Shown: positions 3,206 through 27,571 of the stretch, one piece after another
Layout of the letters: each line of letters opens with the position of its first letter
Position numbering within the stretch: position 1 is the stretch's first letter
IMG/VR virus record: IMGVR_UViG_2617271072_000003
Origin: a virus
Taxonomy: Duplodnaviria > Heunggongvirae > Uroviricota > Caudoviricetes
Reading direction: 5' to 3' (one strand)
DNA length: 27,571 nt
The notes under the pieces: model-generated
Seen by the model: only the letters and a program-made list of their open reading frames with translations
What the model was told of the DNA's origin: nothing
Databases searched by the model: none
Position numbers and translations under genes: made by a program

Positions 3206-4258
3206 ATGAAGAATACTGTAAAAATAAACAGTGTTGATTTAATCAACGCTGATTGCCTGCATTTTATTCAGTCCCTGCCTGATGACTCCATTGATCTGAT
3301 TGTTACCGATCCGCCGTACTTCAAAGTGAAGCCCAACGGCTGGGACAATCAGTGGAAAGGGGACGAAGATTACCTGAAGTGGCTGGACCACTGTCTGGCC
3401 CAGTTCTGGCGGGTACTGAAACCAGCCGGAAGCCTTTACCTGTTCTGTGGACATCGCCTGGCATCTGATATCGAGATCATGATGCGTGAACGTTTCAACG
3501 TTCTTAACCATATCATCTGGGCGAAGCCGTCCGGACGATGGAACGGGTGTAATAAAGAAAGCCTGCGGGCATATTTCCCCGCTACAGAGCGCGTTCTGTT
3601 TGCTGAACATTACCAGGGGCCATATCGCGGCAAAAGTGACGATTATGCGGCAAAAGAAAGGGAACTCAAACAGCACATAATGGCACCGCTGATTTCGTAT
3701 TTCAGGGATGCTCGTGCCGAACTGGGTATAACGGCAAAACAGATTGCCGAAGCCACTGGTAAGAAAAATATGGTTTCCCACTGGTTTGGTGCCAGTCAGT
3801 GGCAGTTGCCGAATGAGGCTGACTACCGGAAGTTGCAGGCACTGTTTTCCCGTATAGCGGCAGAGAAATTTCAGGAACAACAACTGGAACAACCACACCA
3901 CCAGCTGGTGGCATCTTATGATTCACTGAATCGCAAATATTCTGAATTGCTGGATGAGTTTAAAACTCTCCGGCGCTATTTCTCCGTATCAGTTTCCGTG
4001 CCTTATACCGACGTCTGGACGCATAAACCCGTTCAGTTCTACCCGGGTAAACATCCGTGTGAGAAGCCTGCGGATATGCTCCGGCAAATAATCAGTGCCA
4101 GTAGTCGACAAGGCGATCTGGTTGCTGATTTCTTTATGGGATCCGGTTCCACAATAAAAGCAGCAATGGCGCTGGGGCGTCGGGCCTTAGGTGTTGAGCT
4201 TGAGTCAGAGCGGTTTAACCAGACAGTGAAAGAGATAAACGAGCTGGTGGGGAAATAA
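3206..4258 (+). CDS. DNA N6-adenine methyltransferase (beta-class, orphan)
   Basis: 350-aa ORF; catalytic DPPY motif near the N-terminus (IVTDPPYF) and AdoMet-binding FxGxG near the C-terminus (DFFMGSGST); no adjacent restriction endonuclease ORF. Confidence 0.85.
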
Positions 4259-4264
4259 TCTGGT

Positions 4265-4286
4265 GGCCACGTCAGGTGGCCTTTTT
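4265..4286 (+). terminator. intrinsic terminator downstream of the methyltransferase
   Basis: ggccac (4265-4270) / loop gtcag / gtggcc (4276-4281) then TTTTT (4282-4286). Confidence 0.5.
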
Positions 4287-4325
4287 ATTTCCATTACACA
4301 GCACCCGCATCTGCGAGGTGGGGTT

Positions 4326-4541
4326 ATGAAATCCATGGATAAGTTAACAACGGGTGTCGCCTATGGCACCTCAGCAGGTAGTGCCGGGTACTGGTTTTTA
4401 CAGTTGCTCGATAAAGTCACGCCCTCACAGTGGGCGGCAATAGGTGTGCTGGGTAGTCTGGTATTTGGCCTGCTGACGTACCTGACAAACCTTTATTTCA
4501 AGATTAAAGAAGATAAGCGCAAGGCTGCGAGAGGTGAATAA
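4326..4541 (+). CDS. S: class II holin / pinholin (phage 21 S21-like), dual-start motif
   Basis: 71 aa from ATG 4326 within ORF 4263..4541; [26 protein letters not shown]... resembles S21 (recollection); Met1-Lys-Ser-Met4 dual start; GAGGTG upstream. Confidence 0.85.
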
Positions 4542-5993: not shown

Positions 5994-6420
5994 TTAGTGC
6001 GGAAATATTTGTGTAGTGTTCTGAATGTTCTCAGTAAAGAGTAATGAATTATCAAAGGTATAGTAATACCTTTTGTTTTCGTGGATATTTGTAATCCATC
6101 TGAAAACCCCTGCTGTAGCAAGATTTTTCCTGTATTCGTAAAATGATAACTCTCCTGATTTGAATCCTTTTAAGGTGGCTTCTATAAGGCATTTATTTTT
6201 TGAAAATCTTACATTTACAACCTTACCCTGTCCTTTTATTAAAACCGTATTATCGTTTTCAAGAACAAGATGAATATTCTCTGTAGCTAAATAGTAAATG
6301 TAATGTGAGACATTGTGACGTTTTTAGTTCAGAATAAAACCAGTGATAGTTTAAATTATTTCGCACTTTATCGAATATTTGTTTAAAAATGGCAACCTGA
6401 GCCATTGTAGTACCTTCCAT
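5994..6420 (-). pseudogene. AT-rich frameshifted ORF remnant, product unknown
   Basis: Hand-translated minus strand: ATG at 6420 opens a 53-codon frame to a stop at 6259-6261; an adjacent frame is open for 109 codons from 6323 to a stop at 5994-5996 with no ATG. The two frames overlap, consistent with one ~140-codon gene broken by a frameshift. Confidence 0.3.
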
Positions 6421-6461: not shown

Positions 6462-6695
6462 TCAATCTGGTCTGATCTGTTTTCTGAGCAATTCAGTAAT
6501 GTCACTCTTTTCTTTGTTTGCTTCAGGAGAAACTCTTTTTTCTGAGCACAGTCTCCGGCGGCAGGCTTCAATGACCCAGGCTGAGAAATTCCCGGACCCT
6601 TTTTGATCAAGAGCGATGTTAATTTGTTCAATCATTTGGTTAGGAAAGCGGATGTTGCGGGTTGTTGTTCTGCGGGTTCTGTTCTTCGTTGACAT
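6462..6695 (-). CDS. small ribbon-helix-helix-like DNA-binding protein (possibly YlcI/DUF3950-like)
   Basis: 77-aa ORF; basic N-terminus then NIRFPNQMIEQINIALDQKGSGNFSAWVIEA, resembling an RHH fold; family assignment is recollection only. Confidence 0.45.
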   Translation of the reverse strand: MSTKNRTRRTTTRNIRFPNQMIEQINIALDQKGSGNFSAWVIEACRRRLCSEKRVSPEANKEKSDITELLRKQIRPD

Positions 6696-6894
6696 GAGGT
6701 TGTCCCGTATTCAGTGTCGCTGATTTGTATTGTCTGAAGTTGTTTTTACGTTAAGTTGATGCAGATCAATTAATACGATATCTGCGTCATAATTGATTAT
6801 TTGACGTGGTTTGATTGCGTAGATGCACGTTGTGACATGTAGATGATAATTATTATCATTTTGCGGGTCCTTTCCGGCGATCCGACAGGTTACG

Positions 6895-6906
6895 GGGCGG
6901 CGACCT
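6895..6906. other. cos: cos site: cosN 12-nt cohesive end GGGCGGCGACCT (cosQ upstream, cosB downstream, roughly 6790-7080)
   Basis: Exact lambda cohesive-end sequence at 6895-6906, preceded by ...CCGACAGGTTACG and followed by CGCGGGTTTTCGCTATTTATGAAAA..., immediately upstream of Nu1. Confidence 0.88.
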
Positions 6907-7083
6907 CGCGGGTTTTCGCTATTTATGAAAAATTTCCGGTTTAAGGCGTTTCCGTTCTTCTTCGTCATAACTTAATGTTTTTATTTAAAATACCCTCTGA
7001 AAAGAAAGGAAACGACAGGTGCTGAAAGCGAGCTTTTTGGCCTCTGTCGTTTCCTTTCTCTGTTTTTGTCCGTGGAATGAACA

Positions 7084-7604
7084 ATGGAAGTCAACAAAAA
7101 GCAGCTGGCTGACATTTTCGGTGCGAGTATCCGTACCATTCAGAACTGGCAGGAACAGGGAATGCCCGTTCTGCGAGGCGGTGGCAAGGGTAATGAGGTG
7201 CTTTATGACTCTGCCGCCGTCATAAAATGGTATGCCAAAAGGGATGCTGAAATTGAGAACGAAAAGCTGCGCCGGGAGGTTGAAGAACTGCGGCAGGCCA
7301 GCGAGGCAGATCTCCAGCCAGGGACTATTGAGTACGAACGCCATCGACTTACGCGTGCGCAGGCCGACGCACAGGAACTGAAGAATGCCAGAGACTCCGC
7401 TGAAGTGGTGGAAACCGCATTCTGTACTTTCGTGCTGTCGCGGATCGCAGGTGAAATTGCCAGTATTCTCGACGGGATCCCCCTGTCGGTGCAGCGGCGT
7501 TTTTCCGGAACTGGAAAACCGACATGTTGATTTCCTGAAACGGGATATCATCAAAGCCATGAACAAAGCAGCCGCGCTGGATGAACTGATACCGGGGTTG
7601 CTGA

Positions 7605-7630
<26 letters not shown>
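7084..7630 (+). pseudogene. nu1: terminase small subunit Nu1, reading frame interrupted by a +1 indel
   Basis: ORF 7084..7530 matches Nu1 to ...SVQRRF, then shifts at a T5 run (7500-7504) and stops; the Nu1 C-terminus ...PELENRHVDFLKRD...SEYIEQSG continues in ORF 7385..7630. Confidence 0.85.
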
Positions 7631-11321
<3,691 letters not shown>

Positions 11322-11341
<20 letters not shown>

Positions 11342-12641
11342 TCTCCCGCATATTGCCAGCATGGCTTTTAATGAGCCGCTGATGCTTGAACCCGCCTATG
11401 CGCGGGTTTTCTTTTGTGCGCTTGCAGGCCAGCTTGGGATCAGTCGCCTGACGGATGCAGTATCCGGCGACAGCCTGACTGCCGGAGAGGCACCCGCGGC
11501 GCTGGCGTTATCCGGTGATGATGACGGACCACGACAGGCCCGCAGTTATCAGGTCATGAACGGCATCGCCGTGCTGCCGGTGTCCGGTACGCTGGTCAGC
11601 CGGACGCGGGCGCTGCAGCCGTATTCGGGAATGACCGGTTACAACGGCATTATCGCCCGTCTGCAACAGGCTGCCAGCGATCCGATGGTGGACGGCATTC
11701 TGCTCGATATGGACACACCGGGCGGGATGGTGGCGGGAGCATTTGACTGTGCTGACATCATCGCCCGTGTGCGTGACATAAAGCCGGTATGGGCGCTGGC
11801 CAACGACATGAACTGCAGTGCAGGTCAGCTGCTTGCCAGCGCCGCCTCCCGGCGTCTGGTCACGCAGACCGCCCGGACAGGCTCCATCGGCGTCATGATG
11901 GCTCACAGTAATTACGGCGCTGCGCTGGAGAAACAGGGCGTGGAAATCACGCTGATTTACAGCGGCAGCCATAAGGTGGATGGCAACCCCTACAGCCATC
12001 TACCGGGTGATGTCCGGGAGACACTGCAGTCCCGGATGGATGCAACCCGCCGGATGTTTGCGCAGAAGGTGTCGGCATATACCGGCCTGTCCGTGCAGGC
12101 TGTGCTGGATACCGAGGCTGCAGTGTACAGCGGTCAGGAGGCCATTGATGCCGGACTGGCTGATGAACTTGTCAACAGCACCGATGCGATCACCGTTATG
12201 CGTGATGCACTGGATGCACGTAAATCCCGTCTCTCAGGAGGGCGAATGACCAAAGAGACTCAATCAACAACTGTTTCAGCCACTGCTTCGCAGGCTGACG
12301 TTACTGACGTGGTGCAAGCGACGGAGGGCGAAAACGCCAGCGCGGCGCAGCCGGACGTGAACGCGCAGATCACCGCTGCGGTTGCGGCAGAAAACAGCCG
12401 CATTATGGGGATCCTCAACTGTGAGGAGGCTCACGGACGCGAAGAACAGGCACGTGTGCTGGCCGAAACCCCCGGTATGACCGTGGAAACGGCCCGCCGC
12501 ATTCTGGCAGCTGCACCACAGAGTGCACAGGCGCGCAGTGACACTGCGCTGGATCGTCTGATGCAGGGGGCACCGGCACCACTGGCTGCAGGTAACCCGG
12601 CATCTGATGCCGTTAACGATTTGCTGAACACACCAGTGTAA
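11322..12641 (+). CDS. C: capsid assembly protease gpC
   Basis: GTG start at 11322 (VTAELRNLPHIASMAF...), 439 aa; ORF track's 11187 start is an upstream extension overlapping B. Confidence 0.93.
12036..12641 (+). CDS. nu3: scaffolding protein Nu3 (in-frame internal start within C)
   Basis: Internal ATG at 12036 (MDATRRMFAQKVSAYTGLSVQ...) in the C frame, as in lambda. Confidence 0.6.
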   Translation: MDATRRMFAQKVSAYTGLSVQAVLDTEAAVYSGQEAIDAGLADELVNSTDAITVMRDALDARKSRLSGGRMTKETQSTTVSATASQADVTDVVQATEGENASAAQPDVNAQITAAVAAENSRIMGILNCEEAHGREEQARVLAETPGMTVETARRILAAAPQSAQARSDTALDRLMQGAPAPLAAGNPASDAVNDLLNTPV

Positions 12642-12650
12642 GGGATGTTT

Positions 12651-12983
12651 ATGACGAGCAAAGAAACCTTTACCCATTACCAGCCGCTGGGCAACAGTGA
12701 CCCGGCACATACGGCAACCGCGCCCGGCGGATTGAGTGCGAAAGCGCCTGCAATGACCCCGCTGATGCCGGATACCTCCACCCGTAAGCTGGTTGCGTGG
12801 GATGGCACCACCGACGGTACTGCCGTTGGCATTCTGGCGGTTGATGCTGACCAGACCAGCACCACGCTGACGTTCTACAAGTCCGGCACGTTCCGTTATG
12901 AGGATGTGCTCTGGCCGGAGGCTGCCAGCGACGAGACGAAAAAACGGACCGCGTTTGCCGGAACGGCAATCAGCATCGTTTAA
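12651..12983 (+). CDS. D: head decoration protein gpD
   Basis: 110 aa from ATG 12651 ([12 protein letters not shown]...); matches lambda D. Confidence 0.95.
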
Positions 12984-13004
12984 CCTTACCCTTCATCACT
13001 AAAG

Positions 13005-13025
13005 GCCGCCTGTGCGGCTTTTTTT
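13005..13025 (+). terminator. hairpin plus T-run between D and E
   Basis: gccgc (13005-13009) / loop ctgt / gcggc (13014-13018) followed by T7 (13019-13025). Confidence 0.4.
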
Positions 13026-13037
13026 ACGGGATTTTTT

Positions 13038-14063
13038 ATGTCGATGTACACAACCGCCCAGCTGCTGGCGGCAAATGAGCAGAAATTTAAGTTTGATCCG
13101 CTGTTTCTGCGTCTCTTTTTCCGTGAGAGCTATCCCTTCACCACGGAGAAAGTCTATCTCTCACAAATTCCGGGACTGGTAAACATGGCGCTGTACGTTT
13201 CGCCGATTGTTTCCGGTGAGGTTATCCGTTCCCGTGGCGGCTCCACCTCTGAATTTACGCCGGGATATGTCAAACCCAAGCATGAGGTGAATCCGCAGAT
13301 GACCCTGCGTCGCCTGCCGGATGAAGATCCGCAGAATCTGGCGGACCCGGCTTACCGCCGCCGTCGCATCATCATGCAGAACATGCGAGACGAAGAGCTG
13401 GCCATTGCTCAGGTCGAAGAGATGCAGGCAGTTTCTGCTGTGCTTAAGGGCAAATACACCATGACCGGTGAAGCCTTCGATCCGGTTGAGGTGGATATGG
13501 GCCGCAGTGCGGCGAACAACATCACACAGTCCGGTGGTACGGAGTGGAGCAAGCGTGACAAGTCCACGTATGACCCGACCGACGATATCGAAGCCTATGC
13601 GCTGAACGCCAGCGGCGTGGTGAATATCATCGTGTTTGATCCGAAAGGCTGGGCGCTGTTCCGTTCCTTCAAAGCCGTCAAGGAGAAGCTGGATACCCGT
13701 CGCGGCTCTCATTCCGAGCTGGAGACAGCGGTAAAAGACCTGGGCGAAGCGGTGTCCTATAAGGGGATGTATGGCGATACGGCGATCGTCGTGTATTCCG
13801 GACAGTACGTGGAAAACGACGTCAAAAAGAACTTCCTGCCGGACAACACGATGGTGCTGGGGAACACTCAGGCACGCGGTCTGCGCACCTATGGCTGCAT
13901 TCAGGATGCGGACGCACAGCGCGAAGGTATTAACGCCTCTGCCCGCTACCCGAAAAACTGGGTGACCACCGGCGATCCGGCGCGTGAGTTCACCATGATT
14001 CAGTCAGCACCGCTGATGCTGCTGGCTGATCCTGATGCGTTCGTGTCCGTACAACTGGCGTAA
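13038..14063 (+). CDS. E: major capsid protein gpE
   Basis: 341-aa ORF; MSMYTTAQLLAANEQKFKFDPLFLRLFF... matches lambda E. Confidence 0.97.
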   Translation: MSMYTTAQLLAANEQKFKFDPLFLRLFFRESYPFTTEKVYLSQIPGLVNMALYVSPIVSGEVIRSRGGSTSEFTPGYVKPKHEVNPQMTLRRLPDEDPQNLADPAYRRRRIIMQNMRDEELAIAQVEEMQAVSAVLKGKYTMTGEAFDPVEVDMGRSAANNITQSGGTEWSKRDKSTYDPTDDIEAYALNASGVVNIIVFDPKGWALFRSFKAVKEKLDTRRGSHSELETAVKDLGEAVSYKGMYGDTAIVVYSGQYVENDVKKNFLPDNTMVLGNTQARGLRTYGCIQDADAQREGINASARYPKNWVTTGDPAREFTMIQSAPLMLLADPDAFVSVQLA

Positions 14064-14104
14064 TCATGGCCCTTCGGGGCCATTTTCTCTCTGTGGAGGA
14101 GTCC

Positions 14105-14500
14105 ATGACGAAAGATGAACTGATTGCCCGTCTTCAGGTGCTGGGTGAGCAACTGAACCGTGATGTCAGCCTGACGGGGACGAAAGAAGAACTGGTGCTC
14201 CGTGTGGCAGAGCTGGAAGAGGAGCTTGATGACACGGATGACGCTGCCGGTCAGGACACATCTGTCAGCCCGGAAAATGCGCTGACCGGACATGAAAATG
14301 AGGTGGTATCAGCGCAGCCGGATACCGTGATTGATACGGCTGCTCTGGTCACGGTCGTGGCACTGGTGACGCTGCATACTGATGCACTTCACGCCACGCG
14401 GGATGAGCCTGTGGCATTTGTGCTGCCGGGAACGGCGTTTCGTGTCTCTGCCGGTGTGGCAGCCGAAATGACAGAACATGGCCTGGCCAGAATGCAATAA
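14105..14500 (+). CDS. FI: DNA packaging protein gpFI
   Basis: ATG 14105 (MTKDELIARL...) within ORF 14066..14500; lambda FI-like. Confidence 0.88.
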   Translation: MTKDELIARLQVLGEQLNRDVSLTGTKEELVLRVAELEEELDDTDDAAGQDTSVSPENALTGHENEVVSAQPDTVIDTAALVTVVALVTLHTDALHATRDEPVAFVLPGTAFRVSAGVAAEMTEHGLARMQ

Positions 14501-14511
14501 CGGGAGGCGCT

Positions 14512-14865
14512 GTGGCTGATTCCGATAACCTGTTCGATGCTGCCATTGCCCGCGCCGATGAAACGATACGCGGGTACATGGGAACGTCAGCCACCATGAC
14601 ATCCGGTGAGCTGTCCGGTGCTGTGATACGTGGTGTTTTTGATGACCCTGAAAATATCAGCTATGCCGGACAGGGGGTGCGCGTTGAAGGCTCCAGCCCG
14701 TCCCTGTTTGTCCGGACTGATGATGTGCGGCAGCTGCGGCGTGGAGACACACTGACCATCGGCGAGGAAAACTTCTGGGTGGACCGGATTTCGCCGGATG
14801 ATGGCGGAAGCTGTCATCTCTGGCTTGGGCGGGGCGTACCGCCTGCCGTTAACCGTCGCCGCTGA
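14512..14865 (+). CDS. FII: head completion protein gpFII
   Basis: 117-aa ORF; MADSDNLFDAAIARADETIRGYMG... matches lambda FII. Confidence 0.95.
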   Translation: MADSDNLFDAAIARADETIRGYMGTSATMTSGELSGAVIRGVFDDPENISYAGQGVRVEGSSPSLFVRTDDVRQLRRGDTLTIGEENFWVDRISPDDGGSCHLWLGRGVPPAVNRRR

Positions 14866-14876
14866 AGGGGGGATGT

Positions 14877-15457
14877 ATGGCCATAAAAGGTCTTGAGCAG
14901 GCCGTTGAAAACCTCAGTCGTATCAGCAAAACGGCGGTGCCCGGTGCGTCAGCAATGGCCATTAACCGCGTTGCGTCATCCGCGATATCGCAGTCTGCGT
15001 CACAAGGTTGCCCGTGAGACAAGGGTACGCCGGAAACTGGTAAAGGAAAGGGCCAGGCTGAAAAGGGCCACGGTTAAAAATCCGCAGGCCAGAATCAGGG
15101 TTAACCGGGGGGATTTGCCCGTAATCAAGCTGGGTAACGCGCGGGTTGTCCTGTCCCGACGCAGGCGTCGTAAAAAGGGGCAGCGTTCATCCCTGAAAGG
15201 TGGCGGCAGCGTGCTTGTGGTGGGAAACCGTCGTATTCCCGGCGCGTTTTATTCAGCAACTGAAAAATGGCCGCTGGCATGTCATGCAGCGTGTGGCCGG
15301 GAAAAACCGTTACCCCATTGATGTGGTGAAAATCCCGATGGCGGTGCCGCTGACCACGGCGTTTAAACAGAATATTGAGCGGATACGGCGTGAGCGTCTT
15401 CCGAAAGAGCTGGGCTATGCGCTGCAGCATCAACTGAGGATGGTAATAAAGCGATGA
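14877..15457 (+). pseudogene. Z: tail completion protein gpZ, frame interrupted twice
   Basis: ATG 14877 MAIKGLEQAVENLSRISK...SQSASQ then stop at 15015-15017; middle of gpZ in ORF 14893..15321; C-terminus (FIQQLKNGRWHVMQ...MVIKR) in ORF 15200..15457. Shift points near 15004-15005 and the T4 run 15247-15250. Confidence 0.85.
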
Positions 15458-15852
15458 AACATACTGAACTCCGTGCAGCCGTACTGGATGCACTGGAGAA
15501 GCATGACACCGGGGCGACGTTTTTTTTGATGGTCCGCCCCGCTGTTTTTGATGAGGCGGATTTTCCGGCAGTTGCCGTTTATCTCACCGGCGCTGAATAC
15601 ACGGGCGAAGAGCTGGACAGCGATACCTGGCAGGCGGAGCTGCATATCGAAGTTTTCCTGCCTGCTCAGGTGCCGGATTCAGAGCTGGATGCGTGGATGG
15701 AGTCCCGGATTTATCCGGTGATGAGCGATATCCCGGCACCGTCAGATTTGATCACCAGTATGGTGGCCAGTGGCTATGACTACCGGCGCGACGATGATGC
15801 GGGCCTGTGGAGTTCTGCCGATCTGACTTATGTCATTACCTATGAAATGTGA
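15454..15852 (+). CDS. U: tail terminator protein gpU
   Basis: 132-aa ORF overlapping the Z stop; lambda U-like; contains a T8 run at 15520-15527. Confidence 0.9.
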
Positions 15853-15859
15853 GGACGAT

Positions 15860-16600
15860 ATGCCTGTACCAAATCCAGCAATACCGGTGAAAGGTGCCGG
15901 AACCACCCTGTGGGTTTATAACGGGAGCGGCGACCCTTATGCGAACCCGCTTTCAGACGTTGACTGGTCGCGTCTGGCTAAAGTTAAAGACCTGACGCCC
16001 GGCGAACTGACCGCTGAGTCCTATGACGACAGTTATCTCGATGATGAAGATGCGGACTGGACCGCGACCGGGCAGGGGCAGAAATCTGCCGGAGATACCA
16101 GCTTCACGCTGGCGTGGATGCCCGGAGAGCAGGGGCAGCAGGCGCTGCTGGCGTGGTTTAATGAAGGGGATACCCGTGCCTATAAAATCCGCTTCCCGAA
16201 CGGCACGGTCGATGTGTTCCGTGGCTGGGTCAGCAGTATCGGTAAGGCGGTGACGGCGAAGGAAGTGATCACCCGTACGGTGAAGGTCACCAATGTGGGC
16301 CGTCCGTCAATGGCAGAAGATCGCAGTACGGTGACGGCGGCAACCGGCATGACCGTGACGCCTGCCAGCACTTCGGTGGTGAAAGGGCAGAGCACCACGC
16401 TGACCGTGGCATTCCAGCCGGAAGGCGCAACCGACAAGAGCTTCCGTGCGGTGTCTGCGGATAAAACAAAAGCCACCGTGTCGGTCAGTGGTATGACCAT
16501 CACCGTGAAAGGTGTTGCTGCAGGCAAGGTCAACATTCCGGTTGTATCCGGTAATGGTGAACTTGCTGTGGTTGCAGAAATCACCGTCACCGACAGTTAA
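15860..16600 (+). CDS. V: major tail tube protein gpV
   Basis: ATG 15860 ([20 protein letters not shown]...) with GAGGA upstream; C-terminal Ig-like region; lambda V-like. Confidence 0.95.
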
Positions 16601-16615
16601 TCCGGAGAGTCAGCG

Positions 16616-17038
16616 ATGTTCCTGAAAACCGAATCATTTGAATATAACGGTGTGAGCGTCACGCTTTCTGAACTGTCAGCCCTGCAGCGAATTGAGCATC
16701 TCGCCCTGCTGAAACGACAGGCAGAACAGGCGGGATCCAGTCTCAATCGACAGGTGAGCGTGGAAGATCTCGTCAGAACCGGTGCTTTTCTGGTGGCGAT
16801 GTCCCTGTGGCATAGCCATCCGCAGAAGACAAAGATGCCGTCCATGAATGAAGCCGTTAAACAAATTGAGCAGGAAGTGCTTACCACCTGGCCCACAGAG
16901 GCAATTTCTCATGCTGAAAACGTGGTGTACCGGCTGTCCGGTATGTATGAGTTTGTGGTGAATGATGCTCCTGAACAGACAGAGGACGCCGGGCCTGCAG
17001 AGCCTGTTTCTGCGGGAAAGTGTTCGATGGTGAGCTGA
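16616..17038 (+). CDS. G: tail assembly chaperone gpG
   Basis: 140-aa ORF; lambda G-like; contains the slippery heptamer near its 3' end. Confidence 0.95.
   Translation: MFLKTESFEYNGVSVTLSELSALQRIEHLALLKRQAEQAGSSLNRQVSVEDLVRTGAFLVAMSLWHSHPQKTKMPSMNEAVKQIEQEVLTTWPTEAISHAENVVYRLSGMYEFVVNDAPEQTEDAGPAEPVSAGKCSMVS
17014..17020 (+). other. programmed -1 ribosomal frameshift site G GGA AAG (G to G-T fusion)
   Basis: GGGAAAG at 17014-17020 in the G frame; the -1 frame continues into the T ORF (17020..17454). Confidence 0.85.
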
Positions 17039-17454
17039 GTTTTGCCCTGAAACTGGCGCGAGAGATGGGGCGACCCGACTGGCGTGCCATGCTTGCCGGG
17101 ATGTCATCCACGGAGTATGCCGACTGGCACCGCTTTTACAGTACCCATTATTTTCATGATGTTCTGCTGGATATGCACTTTTCCGGGCTGACGTACACCG
17201 TGCTCAGCCTGTTTTTCAGCGATCCGGATATGCATCCGCTGGATTTCAGTCTGCTGAACCGGCGTGAGGCTGACGAAGAGCCTGAAGATGATGTGCTGAT
17301 GCAGAAAGCGGCAGGGCTTGCCGGAGGCGTCCGCTTTGGCCCGGACGGGAATGAAGTTATCCCCGCTTCCCCGGATGTGGCGGACATGACGGAGGATGAC
17401 GTAATGCTGATGACAGTATCAGAAGGGATCGCAGGAGGAGTCCGGTATGGCTGA
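17020..17454 (+). CDS. T: tail assembly protein T (expressed as G-T fusion via -1 frameshift)
   Basis: Open frame 17020..17454 with no independent RBS or ATG, overlapping the 3' end of G; lambda T-like. Confidence 0.88.
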   Translation: MFDGELSFALKLAREMGRPDWRAMLAGMSSTEYADWHRFYSTHYFHDVLLDMHFSGLTYTVLSLFFSDPDMHPLDFSLLNRREADEEPEDDVLMQKAAGLAGGVRFGPDGNEVIPASPDVADMTEDDVMLMTVSEGIAGGVRYG

Positions 17455-20026
17455 ACCGGTAGGCGATCTGGTCGTTGATTTAAGTCTGGATGCGGCCAGA
17501 TTTGACGAGCAGATGGCCAGAGTCAGGCGTCATTTTTCCGGTACGGAAACTGATGCGAAAAAAACAGCGGCAGTCGTTGAACAGTCGCTGAGCCGACAGG
17601 CGCTGGCTGCACAGAAAGCGGGGATTTCCGTCGGGCAGTATAAAGCCGCCATGCGTATGCTGCCTGCACAGTTCACCGACGTGGCCACGCAGCTTGCAGG
17701 CGGGCAAAGCCCGTGGCTGATCCTGCTGCAACAGGGGGGTCAGGTTAAGGACTCCTTCGGCGGGATGATCCCCATGTTCAGGGGGCTTGCCGGTGCGATC
17801 ACCCTGCCGATGGTGGGGGCCACCTCGCTGGCGGTGGCGACCGGTGCGCTGGCGTATGCCTGGTATCAGGGCAACTCAACCCTGTCCGATTTCAACAAAA
17901 CGCTGGTCCTTTCCGGCAATCAGGCGGGACTGACGGCAGATCGTATGCTGGTCCTGTCCAGAGCCGGGCAGGCGGCAGGGCTGACGTTTAACCAGACCAG
18001 CGAGTCACTGACGGCGCTGGTGAATGCCGGTGTGCGTGGTGGTGAGCAGTTTGAGGCGATCAGCCAGAGTGTGGCGCGTTTCTCCTCTGCATCCGGCGTG
18101 GAGGTGGACAAGGTCGCTGAAGCCTTCGGGAAGCTGACCACAGACCCGACGTCGGGACTGACAGCGATGGCACGTCAGTTCCATAACGTGACGGCGGAGC
18201 AGATTGCGTATGTTGCTCAGTTGCAGCGTTCCGGAGATGAAGCCGGGGCATTGCAGGCGGCGAACGAGGCCGCAACGAAAGGGTTTGATGACCAGACCCG
18301 CCGCCTGAAAGAGAACATGGGCACGCTGGAGACCTGGGCAGACAGGACAGCACGGGCATTCAAATCCATGTGGGATTCGGTGCTGGATATTGGTCGCCCG
18401 GACACTGCCCAGGTAATGCTGGAGAAAGCAGAAAAGGCTTTTGATGAGGCGGACAAAAAATGGCAGTGGTATCAGAGCCGGAGCCACCGGCGCGGTAAAA
18501 CCTCAGCATTTCTTGCCAATCTCCGGGGAGCATGGGAGGACAGAGCGAATGCGCAACTTGGGCTTTCAGCCGCCACGTTGCAGGCCGATCTTGAAAAGGC
18601 CAGAGAGATGGCAGCAAAGGACTGGGCCGAGTCTGAGGCATCACGGCTGAAATATACCGAAGAGGCGCAGAAGGCTTACGAACGGCTGCAGACGCCGCTG
18701 GAGAAATATACCGCCCGTCAGGAAGAACTGAACAAGGCACTGAAAGACGGGAAAATCCTGCAGGCGGATTACAACACGCTGATGGCGGCGGCGAAAAAGG
18801 ATTATGAAGCGACGCTGAAAAAGCCGAAACAGTCCGGCGTGAAGGTGTCTGCGGGCGATCGTCAGGAAGACAGTGCTCATGCTGCCCTGCTGATGCTTCA
18901 GACAGAACTCCGGACGCTGGAGAAGCATGCCGGAGCGAATGAGAAAATCAGCCAGCAGCGCCGGGATTTGTGGAAGGCAGAAAGTCAGTTCGCGGTACTG
19001 GAGGAGGCGGCGCAACGTCGTCAGTTGTCTGCACAGGAGAAATCCCTGCTGGCGCATAAAGATGAGACGCTGGAGTACAAACGCCAGCTGGCTGCACTTG
19101 GCGACAAGGTTACGTATCAGGAGCGCCTGAACGCGCTGGCGCAGCAGGCGGATAAATTCGCACAGCAGCAACGGGCAAAACGGGCCGCCATTGATGCGAA
19201 AAGCCGGGGGCTGACTGACCGGCAGGCAGAACGGGAAGCCACGGAACAGCGCCTGAAGGAACAGTATGGCGATAATCCGCTGGCGCTGAATAACGTCATG
19301 TCAGAGCAGAAAAAAGACCTGGGCGGCTGAAGACCAGCTTCGCGGGAGCTGGATGGCAGGCCTGAAGTCCGGCTGGAGTGAGTGGGAAGAGAGCGCCACG
19401 GACAGTATGTCGCAGGTTAAAAGTGCAGCCACGCAGACCTTTGATGGTATTGCACAGAATATGGCGGCGATGCTGACCGGCAGTGAGCAGAACTGGCGCA
19501 GCTTCACCCGTTCCGTGCTGTCCATGATGACAGAAATTCTGCTTAAGCAGGCAATGGTGGGGATTGTCGGGAGTATCGGCAGCGCCATTGGCGGTGCTGC
19601 CAGTGGTGGAGCATCCGCGTCAGGCGGTACAGCCATTCAGGCCGCTGCGGCGAAATTCCATTTTGCGACCGGGGGATTTACGGGAACCGGCGGCAAATAT
19701 GAGCCAGCGGGGATTGTTCACCGTGGTGAATTTGTCTTCACGAAGGAGGCAACCAGCCGGATTGGTGTCGGCAACCTGTACCGCCTGATGAGGGGCTATG
19801 CGGAAGGTGGTTATGTGGCGGTGCCGGAAGTCCGGCGCAGATGCGGCGGGCTGAAGGCATTAATTTTAATCAGAACAATCACGTGGTGATTCAGAACGAC
19901 GGTACGAATGGTCTGCCAGGTCCACAGATGATGAAGGCAGTGTATGACATGGCCCGCAAGGGTGCCCGTGATGAAATTCAGACACAGATGCGTGATGGTG
20001 GCCTGTTCTCCGGAGGTGGACGATGA
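17447..20026 (+). pseudogene. H: tail tape-measure protein gpH, frame interrupted twice
   Basis: ORF 17447..19330 (627 aa, MAEPVGDLVVDLSLDAARF...) stops at 19328-19330; gpH continues in frame 0 (ORF 19353..19889) and returns to the original frame in ORF 19841..20026 (...MRDGGLFSGGGR). The two shifts compensate over 2580 nt, but stop codons intervene. Confidence 0.85.
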
Positions 20027-20352
20027 AAACCTTCCGCTGGAAAGTGAAACCCGGTATGGATGTGGCTTCGGCCCCTTCTGTAAGAAAGGTGCGCTTTGGT
20101 GATGGCTATTCCCAGCGAGCGCCTGCCGGGCTGAATGCCAACCTGAAAACGTACAGCGTGACGCTTTCTGTCCCCCGTGAGGAGGCCACGGTACTGGAGT
20201 CGTTTCTGGAAGAGCACGGGGGCTGGAAAGCCTTTCTGTGGACGCCGCCTTATGAGTGGCGGCAGATAAAGGTGACCTGCGCAAAATGGTCGTCGCGGGT
20301 CAGTATGCTGCGTGTTGAGTTCAGCGCAGAGTTTGAACAGGTGGTGAACTGA
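20023..20352 (+). CDS. M: tail tip protein gpM
   Basis: 109-aa ORF; MKTFRWKVKPGMDVAS... matches lambda M. Confidence 0.95.
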   Translation: MKTFRWKVKPGMDVASAPSVRKVRFGDGYSQRAPAGLNANLKTYSVTLSVPREEATVLESFLEEHGGWKAFLWTPPYEWRQIKVTCAKWSSRVSMLRVEFSAEFEQVVN

Positions 20353-21050
20353 TGCAGGATATCCGGCAGGAAACACTGAATGAATGCACCCGTGCGGAGC
20401 AGTCGGCCAGCGTGGTGCTCTGGGAAATCGACCTGACAGAGGTCGGTGGAGAACGTTATTTTTTCTGTAATGAGCAGAACGAAAAAGGTGAGCCGGTCAC
20501 CTGGCAGGGGCGACAGTATCAGCCGTATCCCATTCAGGGGAGCGGTTTTGAACTGAATGGCAAAGGCACCAGTATGCGCCCCACGCTGACGGTTTCTAAC
20601 CTGTACGGTATGGTCACCGGGATGGCGGAAGATATGCAGAGTCTGGTCGGCGGAACGGTGGTCCGGCGTAAGGTTTACGCCCGTTTTCTGGATGCGGTGA
20701 ACTTCGTCAACGGAAACAGTTACGCCGATCCGGAGCAGGAGGTGATCAGCCGCTGGCGCATTGAGCAGTGCAGCGAACTGAGCGCGGTGAGTGCCTCCTT
20801 TGTACTGTCCACGCCGACGGAAACGGATGGCGCTGTTTTTCCGGGACGTATCATGCTGGCCAACACCTGCACCTGGACCTATCGCGGTGACGAGTGCGGT
20901 TATAGCGGTCCGGCTGTCGCGGATGAATATGACCAGCCAACGTCCGATATCACGAAGGATAAATGCAGCAAATGCCTGAGCGGTTGTAAGTTCCGCAATA
21001 ACGTCGGCAACTTTGGCGGCTTCCTTTCCATTAACAAACTTTCGCAGTAA
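20352..21050 (+). CDS. L: tail tip protein gpL
   Basis: 232-aa ORF; lambda L-like with Cys-rich C-terminus. Confidence 0.95.
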   Translation: MQDIRQETLNECTRAEQSASVVLWEIDLTEVGGERYFFCNEQNEKGEPVTWQGRQYQPYPIQGSGFELNGKGTSMRPTLTVSNLYGMVTGMAEDMQSLVGGTVVRRKVYARFLDAVNFVNGNSYADPEQEVISRWRIEQCSELSAVSASFVLSTPTETDGAVFPGRIMLANTCTWTYRGDECGYSGPAVADEYDQPTSDITKDKCSKCLSGCKFRNNVGNFGGFLSINKLSQ

Positions 21051-21055
21051 ATCCC

Positions 21056-21799
21056 ATGACACAGACAGAATCAGCGATTCTGGCGCACGCCCGGCGATGT
21101 GCGCCAGCGGAGTCGTGCGGCTTCGTGGTAAGCACGCCGGAGGGGGAAAGATATTTTCCCTGCGTGAATATCTCCGGTGAGCCGGAGGCGTATTTCCGTA
21201 TGTCGCCGGAAGACTGGCTGCAGGCAGAAATGCAGGGTGAGATTGTGGCGCTGGTCCACAGCCACCCCGGTGGTCTGCCCTGGCTGAGTGAGGCCGACCG
21301 GCGGCTGCAGGTGCAGAGTGATTTGCCGTGGTGGCTGGTCTGCCGGGGGACGATTCATAAGTTCCGCTGTGTGCCGCATCTCACCGGGCGGCGCTTTGAG
21401 CACGGTGTGACGGACTGTTACACACTGTTCCGGGATGCTTATCATCTGGCGGGGATTGAGATGCCGGACTTTTATCGTGAGGATGACTGGTGGCGTAACG
21501 GCCAGAATCTCTATCTGGATAATCTGGAGGCGACGGGGCTGTATCAGGTGCCGTTGTCAGCGGCACAGCCGGGCGATGTGCTGCTGTGCTGTTTTGGTTC
21601 ATCAGTGCCGAATCACGCCGCAATTTACTGCGGCGACGGCGAGCTGCTGCACCATATTCCTGAACAACTGAGCAAACGAGAGAGGTACACCGACAAATGG
21701 CAGCGACGCACACACTCCCTCTGGCGTCACCGGGCATGGCGCGCATCTGCCTTTACGGGGATTTACAACGATTTGGTCGCCGCATCGACCTTCGTGTGA
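21056..21799 (+). CDS. K: tail tip assembly protein gpK (MPN/JAMM plus NlpC/P60-like)
   Basis: 247-aa ORF; JAMM-like HSHPGG...SEAD motif; the classical 199-aa lambda K start corresponds to internal Met49 (ATG 21200); 3' end overlaps I. Confidence 0.88.
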   Translation: MTQTESAILAHARRCAPAESCGFVVSTPEGERYFPCVNISGEPEAYFRMSPEDWLQAEMQGEIVALVHSHPGGLPWLSEADRRLQVQSDLPWWLVCRGTIHKFRCVPHLTGRRFEHGVTDCYTLFRDAYHLAGIEMPDFYREDDWWRNGQNLYLDNLEATGLYQVPLSAAQPGDVLLCCFGSSVPNHAAIYCGDGELLHHIPEQLSKRERYTDKWQRRTHSLWRHRAWRASAFTGIYNDLVAASTFV

Positions 21800-22368
21800 A
21801 AACGGGGGCTGAAGCCATCCGGGCACTGGCCACACAGCTCCCGGCGTTTCGTCAGAAACTGAGCGACGGCTGGTATCAGGTACGGATTGCCGGGCGGGAC
21901 GTCAGCACGTCCGGGTTAACGGCGCAGTTACATGAGACTCTGCCTGATGGCGCTGTGATTCATATTGTTCCCAGAGTCGCCGGGGCCAAGTCAGGTGGCG
22001 TATTCCAGATTGTCCTGGGGGCTGCCGCCATTGCCGGATCATTCTTTACCGCCGGAGCCACCCTTGCAGCATGGGGGGCAGCCATTGGGACCGGTGGTAT
22101 GACCGGCATCCTGTTTTCTCTCGGTGCCAGTATGGTGCTCGGTGGTGTGGCGCAGATGCTGGCACCGAAAGCCAGAACTCCCCGTACACAGACAACGGAT
22201 AACGGTAAGCAGAACACCTATTTCTCCTCACTGGATAACATGGTTGCCCAGGGCAATGTTCTGCCTGTTCTGTACGGGGAAATGCGCGTGGGGTCTCGCG
22301 TGGTTTCTCAGGAGATCAGCACGGCAGACGAAGGGGACGGTGGTCAGGTTGTGGTGATTGGTCGCTGA
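21697..22368 (+). CDS. I: tail tip assembly protein gpI
   Basis: 223-aa ORF; ubiquitin-like N-terminus and Gly-rich hydrophobic segment; lambda I-like. Confidence 0.95.
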   Translation: MAATHTLPLASPGMARICLYGDLQRFGRRIDLRVKTGAEAIRALATQLPAFRQKLSDGWYQVRIAGRDVSTSGLTAQLHETLPDGAVIHIVPRVAGAKSGGVFQIVLGAAAIAGSFFTAGATLAAWGAAIGTGGMTGILFSLGASMVLGGVAQMLAPKARTPRTQTTDNGKQNTYFSSLDNMVAQGNVLPVLYGEMRVGSRVVSQEISTADEGDGGQVVVIGR

Positions 22369-22428
22369 TGCAAAATGTTTTATGTGAAACCGCCTGCGGG
22401 CGGTTTTGTCATTTATGGAGCGTGAGGA

Positions 22429-25400
22429 ATGGGTAAAGGCAGCAGTAAGGGGCATACCCCGCGCGAAGCGAAGGACAACCTGAAGTCCACGCAGCTGCTG
22501 AGTGTGATCGATGCCATCAGCGAAGGGCCGGTTGAAGGTCCGGTGGATGGATTAAAAAGCGTGCTGCTGAACAGTACGCCGGTGCTGGACACTGAGGGGA
22601 ATACCAACATCTCCGGTGTCACGGTGGTGTTCCGTGCCGGTGAGCAGGAGCAGACACCGCCGGAGGGGTTTGAATCCTCCGGCTCCGAGACGGTGCTGGG
22701 TACGGAAGTGAAATATGACACGCCGATCACCCGCACCATTACGTCTGCAAACATCGACCGTCTGCGCTTTACCTTCGGTGTGCAGGCACTGGTGGAAACC
22801 ACCTCAAAGGGGGACCGGAATCCGTCGGAAGTCCGCCTGCTGGTTCAGATACAGCGTAACGGTGGCTGGGTGACGGAAAAAGACATCACCATTAAGGGCA
22901 AAACCACCTCGCAGTATCTGGCCTCGGTGGTGGTGGATAACCTGCCGCCGCGCCCGTTTAATATCCGGATGCGCAGGATGACGCCGGACAGCACCACAGA
23001 CCAGCTGCAGAACAAAACGCTCTGGTCGTCATACACCGAAATCATCGATGTGAAACAGTGCTACCCGAACACGGCACTGGTCGGCGTGCAGGTGGATTCG
23101 GAGCAGTTCGGCAGCCAGCAGGTGAGCCGTAATTATCATCTGCGCGGGCGCATTCTGCAGGTGCCGTCGAACTATAACCCGCAGACGCGGCAATACAGCG
23201 GTATCTGGGACGGAACGTTTAAGCCAGCATACAGCAACAACATGGCCTGGTGTATGTGGGATATGCTGACCCATCCGCGCTACGGCATGGGGAAACGTCT
23301 TGGTGCAGCGGATGTAGATAAATGGGCGCTGTATGTCATCGGCCAGTACTGCGACCAGTCGGTGCCGGACGGCTTTGGCGGCACGGAGCCGCGCATCACC
23401 TGTAATGCGTACCTGACCACACAGCGCAAGGCGTGGGATGTGCTCAGTGATTTCTGCTCGGCGATGCGCTGTATGCCGGTATGGAACGGGCAGACGCTGA
23501 TGTTCGTGCAGGACCGACCATCAGATAAGGTGTGGACCTATAACCGCAGTAATGTGGTGATGCCGGATGATGGTGCGCCGTTCCGCTACAGCTTCAGCGC
23601 CCTGAAGGACCGCCATAATGCCGTTGAGGTGAACTGGATTGACCCGAACAACGGCTGGGAGACGGCGACAGAGCTTGTTGAAGATACTCAGGCCATTGCC
23701 CGTTACGGTCGTAACGTCACGAAGATGGATGCCTTTGGCTGTACCAGCCGGGGGCAGGCGCACCGCGCCGGGCTGTGGCTGATTAAAACGGAACTGCTGG
23801 AAACGCAGACCGTGGACTTCAGCGTGGGTGCGGAAGGGCTTCGCCATGTACCGGGGGATGTCATTGAAATCTGCGATGATGACTATGCGGGTATCAGCAT
23901 CGGCGGGCGCGTGCTGGCGGTGAACAGCCAGACCCGGACGCTGACGCTCGACCGTGAAATCACGCTGCCATCCTCCGGTACCACGCTGATAAGCCTGGTT
24001 GACGGAAGTGGCAATCCGGTCAGCGTGGAGGTCCAGTCCGTCACCGACGGCGTGAAGGTAAAAGTGAGCCGTGTTCCTGACGGCGTTGCCGGATACAGCG
24101 TGTGGGGGCTGAAGCTGCCGACGCTGCGCCAGCGCCTGTTCCGCTGCGTGAGTATCCGTGAGAACGACGACGGCACGTATGCCATCACCGCCGTGCAGCA
24201 TGTACCCGAAAAAGAAGCCATCGTGGATAACGGGGCGCACTTTGACGGCGACCTGAGCGGCACGGTGAATGGCGTCACGCCGCCCGCGGTGCAGCACCTG
24301 ACTGCCGAAGTCACCGCAGACAGCGGGGAATATCAGGTGCTGGCGCGCTGGGACACGCCGAAGGTGGTGAAGGGGGTGAGCTTCCTGCTTCGCCTGACCG
24401 TGGCAGCGGACGATGGCAGTGAGCGGCTGGTCAGTACGGCCAGGACGACGGAAACCACATACCGCTTCACGCAACTGGCGCTGGGGAACTACAGGCTGAC
24501 TGTCCGGGCGGTAAATGCGTGGGGACAGCAGGGCGAACCGGCATCGGTATCGTTCCGGATTGCCGCACCGGCAGCGCCGTCTCGGATTGAGCTGACACCG
24601 GGCTATTTTCAGATAACCGCCACGCCGCATCTTGCGGTTTATGATCCGACGGTACAATTTGAGTTCTGGTTCTCGGAAACGCGGATTACCGATATCAGGC
24701 AGGTTGAAACCACAGCCCGCTACCTTGGCACGGGGCTGTACTGGATAGCCGCCAGTATCAATATCAAACCGGGCCATGATTATTACTTTTATATCCGCAG
24801 TGTGAACACCGTTGGCAAATCGGCATTCGTGGAGGCTGTCGGTCAGCCGAGTGATGATGCATCAGGCTATCTGGATTTTTTCAAAGGCGAGATAGGGAAA
24901 ACCCATCTGGCTCAGGAGCTGTGGACGCAGATTGATAACGGTCAGCTTGCGCCTGACCTGACTGAAATCAGGACGTCCATAACGGATGTCAGCAATGAAA
25001 TAACACAGACCGTCAATAAGAAACTGGAAGACCAGAGTGCAGCGATCCAGCAGATACAGAAGGTTCAGGTTGATACAAATAATAACCTGAACAGCATGTG
25101 GGCAGTGAAGCTGCAGCAGATGCAGGACGGACGCCTTTATATTGCGGGTATCGGTGCCGGTATTGAGAACACCCCTGACGGCATGCAGAGTCAGGTGCTG
25201 CTGGCAGCAGACAGGATTGCGATGATTAATCCTGCGAATGGCAACACAAAGCCGATGTTTGTTGGTCAGGGCGATCAGATATTCATGAATGAAGTGTTCC
25301 TGAAACGCCTGACGGCCCCCACCATTACCAGCGGCGGTAATCCTCCGGCATTTTCCCTGACATCAGACGGGAGACTGACGGCGAAAAATGCGGATATCAG

Positions 25401-26622: not shown

Positions 26623-26650
26623 AGCCCGCCGGTTCAGGCGGGCTTTTTTT
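26623..26650 (+). terminator. intrinsic terminator downstream of lom
   Basis: agcccgcc (26623-26630) / loop ggttca / ggcgggct (26637-26644) followed by T7 (26644-26650). Confidence 0.6.
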
Positions 26651-26661
26651 GTGGGGTGAAT

Positions 26662-27571
26662 ATGGCAGTAAAGATTTCAGGTGTACTGAAAGACGGCACA
26701 GGAAAACCGGTACAGAACTGCACAATCCAGCTGAAAGCAAAACGTAACAGCACCACGGTGGTGGTGAACACGCTGGCCTCAGAAAATCCGGATGAAGCCG
26801 GGCGTACAGCATGGACGTTGAGTACGGGCAGTACAGCGTTATTCTGTTGGTGGAGGGATTCCCGCCGTCACATGCCGGGACCATCACCGTGTATGAAGAT
26901 TCCCGACCCGGTACGCTGAATGATTTTCTCGGTGCCATGACGGAGGATGATGCCCGTCCTGAGGCACTGCGCCGTTTTGAACTGATGGTGGAAGAGGTGG
27001 CGCGTAACGCGTCCGCGGTGGCACAGAACACGGCAGCCGCGAAGAAGTCAGCCAGCGATGCCAGCACATCAGCCCGTGAGGCGGCAACCCATGCGACTGA
27101 TGCTGCAGGCTCAGCACGCGCAGCCAGCACGTCAGCCGGACAGGCCGCGTCGTCGGCTCAGTCAGCATCTTCCAGCGCAGGAACGGCATCAACAAAGGCC
27201 AGTGAAGCATCGAAAAGTGCTGCTGCTGCAGAGTCCTCAAAAAGCGCGGCAGCTACCAGTGCCGGTGCGGCGAAAACGTCAGAAACGAATGCGGCAGCGT
27301 CACAACAATCAGCAGCCACTTCTGCATCCGCCGCGACCACGAAGGCGTCAGAAGCAGCCACCTCAGCCCGGGATGCGGCGGCCTCAAAAGAGGCAGCGAA
27401 ATCATCAGAAACGAACGCATCATCAAGCGCCAGTAGTGCCGCTTCCTCGGCAACGGCGGCAGGCAATTCCGCGAAGGCGGCAAAGACGTCTGAGACAAAC
27501 GCCAGGTCTTCTGAAACGGCAGCGGGACAGAGCGCCTCGGCTGCGGCAGGCTCAAAAACAGCGGCTGCGTC
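26662..27571 (+). pseudogene. stf: side tail fibre Stf, N-terminal part (frame interrupted near 26805; runs off the window end)
   Basis: ATG 26662 MAVKISGVLKDGTGKPVQNCTIQLKAK...DEAGR, then frame lost and stop at 26917-26919; the Stf-like sequence (Ala/Ser-rich, KTSETNA repeats) is open in the other frame from about 26811 to 27571 (hand-translated). Confidence 0.8.

Follow-up and report, generated by a model that had tools for sequence, protein, structure and literature searches.

The split small terminase gene Nu1 in a prophage contig of Escherichia coli ISC7 very probably reflects a homopolymer-length error

The prophage contig and its small terminase gene

The window examined in this study is the whole stretch of 27,571 nucleotides that was analysed, and it corresponds to the entire contig CBWN010000039.1 of the draft assembly GCA_000529855.1 of Escherichia coli ISC7. 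This contig represents the late region of a lambda-like prophage; it comprises rusA, Q, a DNA methyltransferase gene, the lysis genes and cos, and extends to the start of stf. Downstream of cos, the genes are arranged in the order Nu1, A, W, B, C, D, E, FI, FII, Z and U, followed by V, G, T, H, M, L, K, I, J, lom and the beginning of stf. By direct reading, the cohesive-end 12-mer of cos, GGGCGGCGACCT, was located on the plus strand at positions 6895-6906, approximately 180 nt upstream of Nu1; the same 12-mer has been quoted for lambda (PMC9611059). No difference could be observed in the cos stretch between the window and the six reference prophages described below, and its position places Nu1 in the canonical lambda cos-Nu1-A arrangement. 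The large terminase subunit, gpA (641 aa; PF05876 and PF20454), is encoded intact on the same strand at 7605-9530 and was 100% identical to the reference protein over residues 1-641 in a tblastn search. As in lambda, the start of its gene overlaps the 3' end of Nu1.

To the right of cosN, at positions 6920-6928, the window and its six relatives all read ATGAAAAATTTCC, and lambda presumably reads ATGAAAATTTTCC at this place. If lambda does read so here, the difference is a natural substitution near cos that is common to intact prophages and not an error. Upstream of cos, a 350-aa N6/N4 DNA methyltransferase (PF01555) is encoded at 3206-4258, between the Q antiterminator and the lysis cassette, and a gene of approximately 290 aa with no Pfam match was found on the opposite strand at 1726-2649. 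Both genes are moron-like cargo, and lambda has neither of them at the same place.

The small terminase gene Nu1 (nohD-type) is intact in frame over codons 1-140 (7084-7503, plus strand), and residues 1-140 of the reference Nu1 could be aligned to this segment in frame 1 at 100% identity (tblastn). The frame breaks after residue 140, at a run of five T residues located exactly at 7500-7504 on the plus strand, with the flanks GTGCAGCGGCG-TTTTT-CCGGAACTGG. Here the window reads gcggcg-TTTTT-ccgga and the reference counterpart GCGGCG-TTTT-CCGG; four T residues are present in every relative, and the single extra T shifts the frame. The resulting open reading frame (ORF, 7084-7530) contains Nu1 residues 1-140 (ending in DGIPLSVQRRF), followed by SGTGKPTC and a stop codon at 7528-7530. 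The deposited product (CDL25639.1 / UniProt W1EU12, 'Terminase small subunit [Escherichia coli ISC7]') therefore has 148 aa and is without residues 141-181. The remaining 41 codons sit one frame over: codons 141-181 and the stop codon (PELENRH...SEYIEQSG) occupy 7505-7630 on the plus strand in the +1 frame, and the ORF at 7385-7630 bears this displaced C-terminus, ending in SEYIEQSG. A previous sequence-only reading of this DNA had claimed that Nu1 is split by one surplus T in a homopolymer and that the expected C-terminus is readable one frame over, both of which are borne out by these observations.

The same reading had also predicted that a T4 run would restore a full 181-aa Nu1 like that of lambda. 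Indeed, deletion of one T gave a 546-nt ORF encoding 181 aa, with the same DNA sequence as nohD (WP_000453600.1) in E. coli fEC.1. In an alignment with lambda Nu1 (PV340536), the restored product differed at 2 of 181 residues (E52K and L132I, with 179 residues the same), and the prediction concerning lambda Nu1 proved to be right in every detail. Both E52K and L132I are common to intact prophage copies as well. The N-terminal part of the truncated Nu1 matched PF07471 (Phage_Nu1) in Pfam with E = 1e-86; against a cut-off of 30, the truncated product scored 289 bits and covered positions 1-141 of the 164 in the profile, and the T4-restored product scored 332.5 bits and covered positions 1-164. 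Profile score, near-identity over 181 aa and gene position all assign the gene to the lambda-type Nu1 family. It should be noted that the deposited Nu1 is not one unbroken ORF that includes the C-terminal gpA-binding region, a defect that we would attribute, judging from the sequence comparisons below, to a sequencing error and not to biology.

Related genomes and the private indels of the contig

A 69-nt query centred on the T run was compared by BLAST with 5,426 complete E. coli genomes, which revealed 5,869 homologous places in 3,995 genomes. Among the matches listed for these 5,869 places, no exact full-length match to T5 was found, and all had 98.6% identity, which equals one gap. Two records in the band of at least 99% identity, ranked below those listed, are taken to be partial-coverage matches. 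In addition, the alignments with the listed lambda-family phages and with the best-matching E. coli records covered 820 nt, against 821 nt in the query, which indicates that these relatives have T4. An exact-protein look-up identified no carrier of the truncated 148-aa protein beyond CBWN010000039.1, and the T5 31-mer had no exact match in IMG/VR, JGI metagenome contigs or GTDB species representatives; for the T4 equivalent, at least 120 exact matches were obtained in IMG/VR alone.

When the first 25 kb of the window was used as a query against the 5,426 complete E. coli genomes, six records were identified at 99.9% identity and none at 100%. These references are the prophages of strains fEC.1 (pigeon, China), EC_J_9 (swine, China), 2196 (human, China), 602 (human, Spain), 13KWH46 (human, Hong Kong) and B1S11 (duck, China), and the shared prophage segment that was compared has 27,552 bp. 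The six references, which come from independent genomes, differ among themselves by 0-2 substitutions and 0-2 one-base gaps, and comparison of the window with each one gave 1-2 substitutions but 18-19 gap openings. Compared end to end with the fEC.1 prophage, the window showed 1 mismatch, 18 gap openings and 27 gap bases. None of 19 window-specific 31-mers was present in any of the six references, and thus all of the indels are private to the draft contig. The affected genes were annotated as intact in the references, except for Z of 13KWH46 and an accessory gene of B1S11.

Some peculiarities of the references themselves were also observed. A private 1-nt gap in 13KWH46 (17863-18440 of its locus) is accompanied by the label 'frameshifted' for Z, and another in B1S11 (about 4034-4456 of its locus) by a hypothetical gene left unannotated; 'complete' assemblies also show sporadic single homopolymer errors or real mutations, approximately 1 per 27 kb. 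For strain 2196, the chromosomal-type prophage is borne by a 1.69-Mb circular 'plasmid unnamed1' (NZ_JBUCKS010000002.1), which is apparently no plasmid but a piece of chromosome with the wrong label.

Besides the Nu1 lesion (T4 to T5 at 7500-7504), the window contains 17 further lesions of this kind, which the earlier reading had missed. All of them are given here as they read on the plus strand. A T4 run extended to T5 at 1737-1741 falls in the hypothetical gene WP_021549515 (minus strand), and T7 to T6 at 2630-2635, A5 to A7 at 2663-2669 and T5 to T6 at 2793-2798 are intergenic. A DUF1398 gene on the minus strand is split by T4 to T5 at 6321-6325. Downstream of Nu1, the portal gene B carries an inserted AT at 9980-9981 and an expansion of T6 to T13 at 9983-9995, and T5 to T6 at 10445-10450 splits it into parts of 240 and 284 aa. 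An intergenic T7 to T6 at 13032-13037 lies between D and E. The tail gene Z is split and has two events, A1 to A2 at 15004-15005 and T3 to T4 at 15247-15250, and the tail gene U also has T6 to T8 at 15520-15527 and C1 to C2 at 15534-15535. In the tape-measure gene H, A5 to A6 at 19310-19315 truncates the product at approximately residue 623, and G3 to G2 at 19817-19818 regains the original frame 506 nt past that indel. Finally, T6 to T7 at 26644-26650 is intergenic, between lom and stf, and T2 to T1 at 26805 affects the side tail fibre gene stf.

Several of these events show additional features. The AT insertion and the T6 to T13 expansion in the portal gene (9980-9995) together add 9 nt in frame and convert ...VGSFFRL... 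into ...VGYLFFFFRL..., a form private to the contig, and this event is far larger than a normal homopolymer miscall. The indels in U (15520-15535) are +2 and +1 within 8 nt, a net change of +3, and U stays open with 132 aa instead of 131. In H, a stop codon lies between the members of the +1/-1 pair, and H is still truncated. The sole private substitution, C to A at 19791, is located 25 nt upstream of the deletion in H, and this closeness suggests that the consensus is poor locally.

Altogether, the broken genes are Nu1, portal B, Z, H, stf, the DUF1398 gene and one hypothetical gene. The gene calls in the source record give a portal split into 240 + 284 aa, Z split into 46 + 80 aa and H truncated at 627 aa. 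Every broken protein was found by tblastn to resume in the shifted frame at 93-100% identity, exactly at the indel.

Error signature and alternative explanations

Only 6.4% of the sequence lies in reference homopolymers of 4 or more bases, yet 12 of the 18 indels were located there (binomial P = 5.7e-11). If runs of 3 bases are also counted, the number rises to 14 of 18 (P = 1.5e-8), which leaves 4 events outside such runs. Thirteen indels are located in genes and 5 of 18 are intergenic, at a coding fraction of approximately 0.90, and the essential genes Nu1, B, Z and H were struck as well as intergenic DNA. The density of indels is 0.65 per kb (approximately one per 1.5 kb), which would amount to some 3,300 frameshifting events if extrapolated to a 5-Mb genome. 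The most indel-prone natural condition measured is that of mismatch-repair-deficient E. coli, in which 30,061 substitutions and 5,324 small indels were reported, that is, 15% indels or approximately 5.6 substitutions per indel (PMC8510543). If the private changes followed this spectrum, indels would account for at least 18 of the 19 with a probability of 2.5e-14. Wild-type cells are more substitution-biased than mismatch-repair-deficient cells. Moreover, selection on a functional prophage would purge frameshifts first, and thus the natural expectation is still more extreme. The private changes carry the marks of an artefact: indels greatly outnumber substitutions, are concentrated in homopolymers, are private to one contig and appear heedless of gene function.

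Among the 18 private indels, insertions prevailed over deletions (14 versus 4). In runs of at least 4 bases on the plus strand, 10 events were found in T runs versus 2 in A runs, although the two kinds of run occur at similar frequencies. This skew would not arise from an error or mutation process that is strand-symmetric. The excess of insertions, the excess of T runs, the T6 to T13 expansion with its AT and the four non-homopolymer events are odd features that point past simple flow-space miscalling, for example to low coverage or poor read ends. None of the four favours a biological origin. A mutator or slippage-prone lineage was considered separately and was ruled out by the measured mismatch-repair-deficient spectrum (PMC8510543).

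The sequence-only reading had left a choice between a phage that cannot package DNA and a homopolymer error. This choice was apt, and the whole-contig data strongly favour the second branch: 18 private indels against 1 substitution, together with a T5 allele found nowhere else, lead to a sequencing error. We consider it very probable that the extra T is a homopolymer-length error of sequencing or assembly and not a real feature. The lesion, its uniqueness, its homopolymer context, the 18:1 ratio of indels to substitutions and the continuations in the shifted frame were observed directly; that their cause is technical rather than biological we infer on statistical and not on direct grounds. Run lengths would have been mis-counted, mostly in T or A runs, during sequencing or assembly of the ISC7 draft, and a miscall inside a gene would then appear as a frameshift, with Nu1 as one of at least 7 genes split or truncated in this way. 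The contig would otherwise be base-for-base equal to a prophage that is intact in several complete E. coli genomes, and T4 together with an unbroken 181-aa small terminase is almost certainly the true state of the ISC7 prophage. With regard to the origin of the data, the full-text literature yielded no platform or publication for GCA_000529855.1 or CBWN01, and 'ISC7' occurred there as incidental mentions of BLAST hits.

A genuine slippage mutation, which would make the ISC7 prophage defective, appears very unlikely in comparison with the rest of the contig. E. coli commonly harbours cryptic lambdoid prophages whose late genes are damaged, T5 is what the deposited sequence contains, and a 1-nt gap each is also present in two finished references; a lone real frameshift is not impossible in principle, considering that lambdoid prophages decay and that two finished references hold single-base gaps. 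The phenotype predicted in this case is clear, since lambda TerS uses its C-terminal region to bind the N-terminus of TerL (gpA), and neither subunit is dispensable in vivo (PMC9611059, PMC10810279). The 148-aa Nu1 would keep its N-terminal DNA-binding and self-association regions without the gpA-binding C-terminal 41 residues, no terminase holoenzyme would assemble at cos, and the prophage would neither cut nor package DNA. Many truncated or partial Nu1-type proteins are likewise present in the 90% cluster (881 members), but those listed bear the name 'partial', a sign that they may have been cut at contig ends. However, T5 is one of 18 private indels that are accompanied by 1 private substitution, a pattern that no known mutational process fits even in mismatch-repair-deficient cells (P = 2.5e-14, as above); real decay would not spare the rest of each broken gene from change, and the T5 allele was found nowhere else. 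The branch in which the phage cannot package DNA is thus now improbable and, even if it were true, only one prophage copy in one strain would be packaging-defective, which is common and unsurprising. There is also a slim chance that T5 is real and that the 148-aa Nu1 binds cosB via its winged-helix with no recruitment of gpA, in which case it could interfere with superinfecting lambdoids that share cosB, or else be rescued to full length by +1 slippage on UUU-U at a low level.

Such recoding, taken by itself, would require that tRNA-Phe slips +1 from UUU at 7501-7503 to UUU at 7502-7504, so that a part of the ribosomes would yield full-length Nu1, the others the truncated form, and the shift either sets a ratio of products or rescues a 'problem indel'. 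The context CGU-UUU-UCC would let tRNA-Phe re-pair perfectly in the +1 frame, and a true programmed site exists in the same prophage: where genes G and T meet, the slippery heptamer GGGAAAG (17014-17020), which in lambda serves the programmed -1 frameshift of G/GT, is intact. Correction at the level of translation has been described for problem indels (PMC5009743). At the Nu1 T5 run, however, neither of the two hallmarks of programmed frameshifting, a conserved site and a stimulatory context, could be identified: all relatives have T4 and one unbroken ORF, the A site is UCC (Ser), which is neither a stop nor a rare codon, and by inspection the upstream sequence is GCGGCG with no AGGAGG or Shine-Dalgarno-like stimulator. 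A separate invocation would also be needed for six other broken genes (portal, Z, H and so on), which is untenable, and we regard recoding as highly improbable. Alternatively, the six finished references could be wrong and the window right, if homopolymers had been under-called in all of them as a shared fault of long-read assemblies. Long-read assemblies can under-call homopolymers (PMC4687164), and 14 of the 18 events in the window are extra bases; but four are deletions, the reference state gives intact full-length ORFs that the window state breaks, and lambda has the reference state at 11 of 14 sites, the Nu1 site included (the 14 comparable sites being those in the continuously aligned window parts 6533-18421 and 18635-24925). 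At the Nu1 site, thousands of genomes sequenced on many platforms agree with the references. The integrity of the ORFs and the thousands of agreeing records at the Nu1 site thus effectively refute this explanation, whose probability is negligible.

Given a homopolymer-length error as the preferred explanation, CDL25639.1 / W1EU12, like the other gene models split on this contig (portal, Z, H and further ones), is most likely an artefact of annotation; none of these models should be counted as a pseudogene, as evidence for a defective prophage or as a new short variant. The finding matters for quality control only. In scans of this type, before a homopolymer frameshift is interpreted, the whole contig should be compared with its relatives and the ratio of indels to substitutions should be checked.

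Comparison with known systems

The closest counterparts of the gene are lambda gpNu1 (TerS) itself and its homologues in E. coli prophages, nohA and nohD. In comparison with lambda gpNu1, the following was observed. The restored product has the same 181 aa, is identical at 179 of 181 positions and covers the whole Pfam profile, and the gene begins approximately 180 nt past the cos 12-mer, its 3' end reaching into the start of gpA exactly as in lambda. The difference is that the window has T5 instead of T4 at codons 139-141 and hence a product of 148 aa. A second comparison is offered by lambda G/GT, in which a frameshift likewise occurs at a slippery run in a lambda late gene, and which is present in the same window. 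However, the G/GT site is conserved in all relatives and gives a functional fusion, whereas the Nu1 T5 run is confined to one contig and has no stimulatory context, and the gene is a single ORF elsewhere.

The pattern as a whole resembles homopolymer errors known from draft or unpolished assemblies, as made with flow-based and early long-read platforms. In one published genome, more than 90% of discrepancies were found in homopolymers of more than 4 nt, and Sanger sequencing exposed the annotated frameshifts as errors (PMC4687164). As in that case, the changes in the window are almost only single-base indels in runs, otherwise perfect genes are split, and intergenic DNA is affected too. In contrast with such draft-assembly errors, those observed here are mostly over-calls (14 insertions to 4 deletions), favour T over A and include one +7 expansion accompanied by AT.
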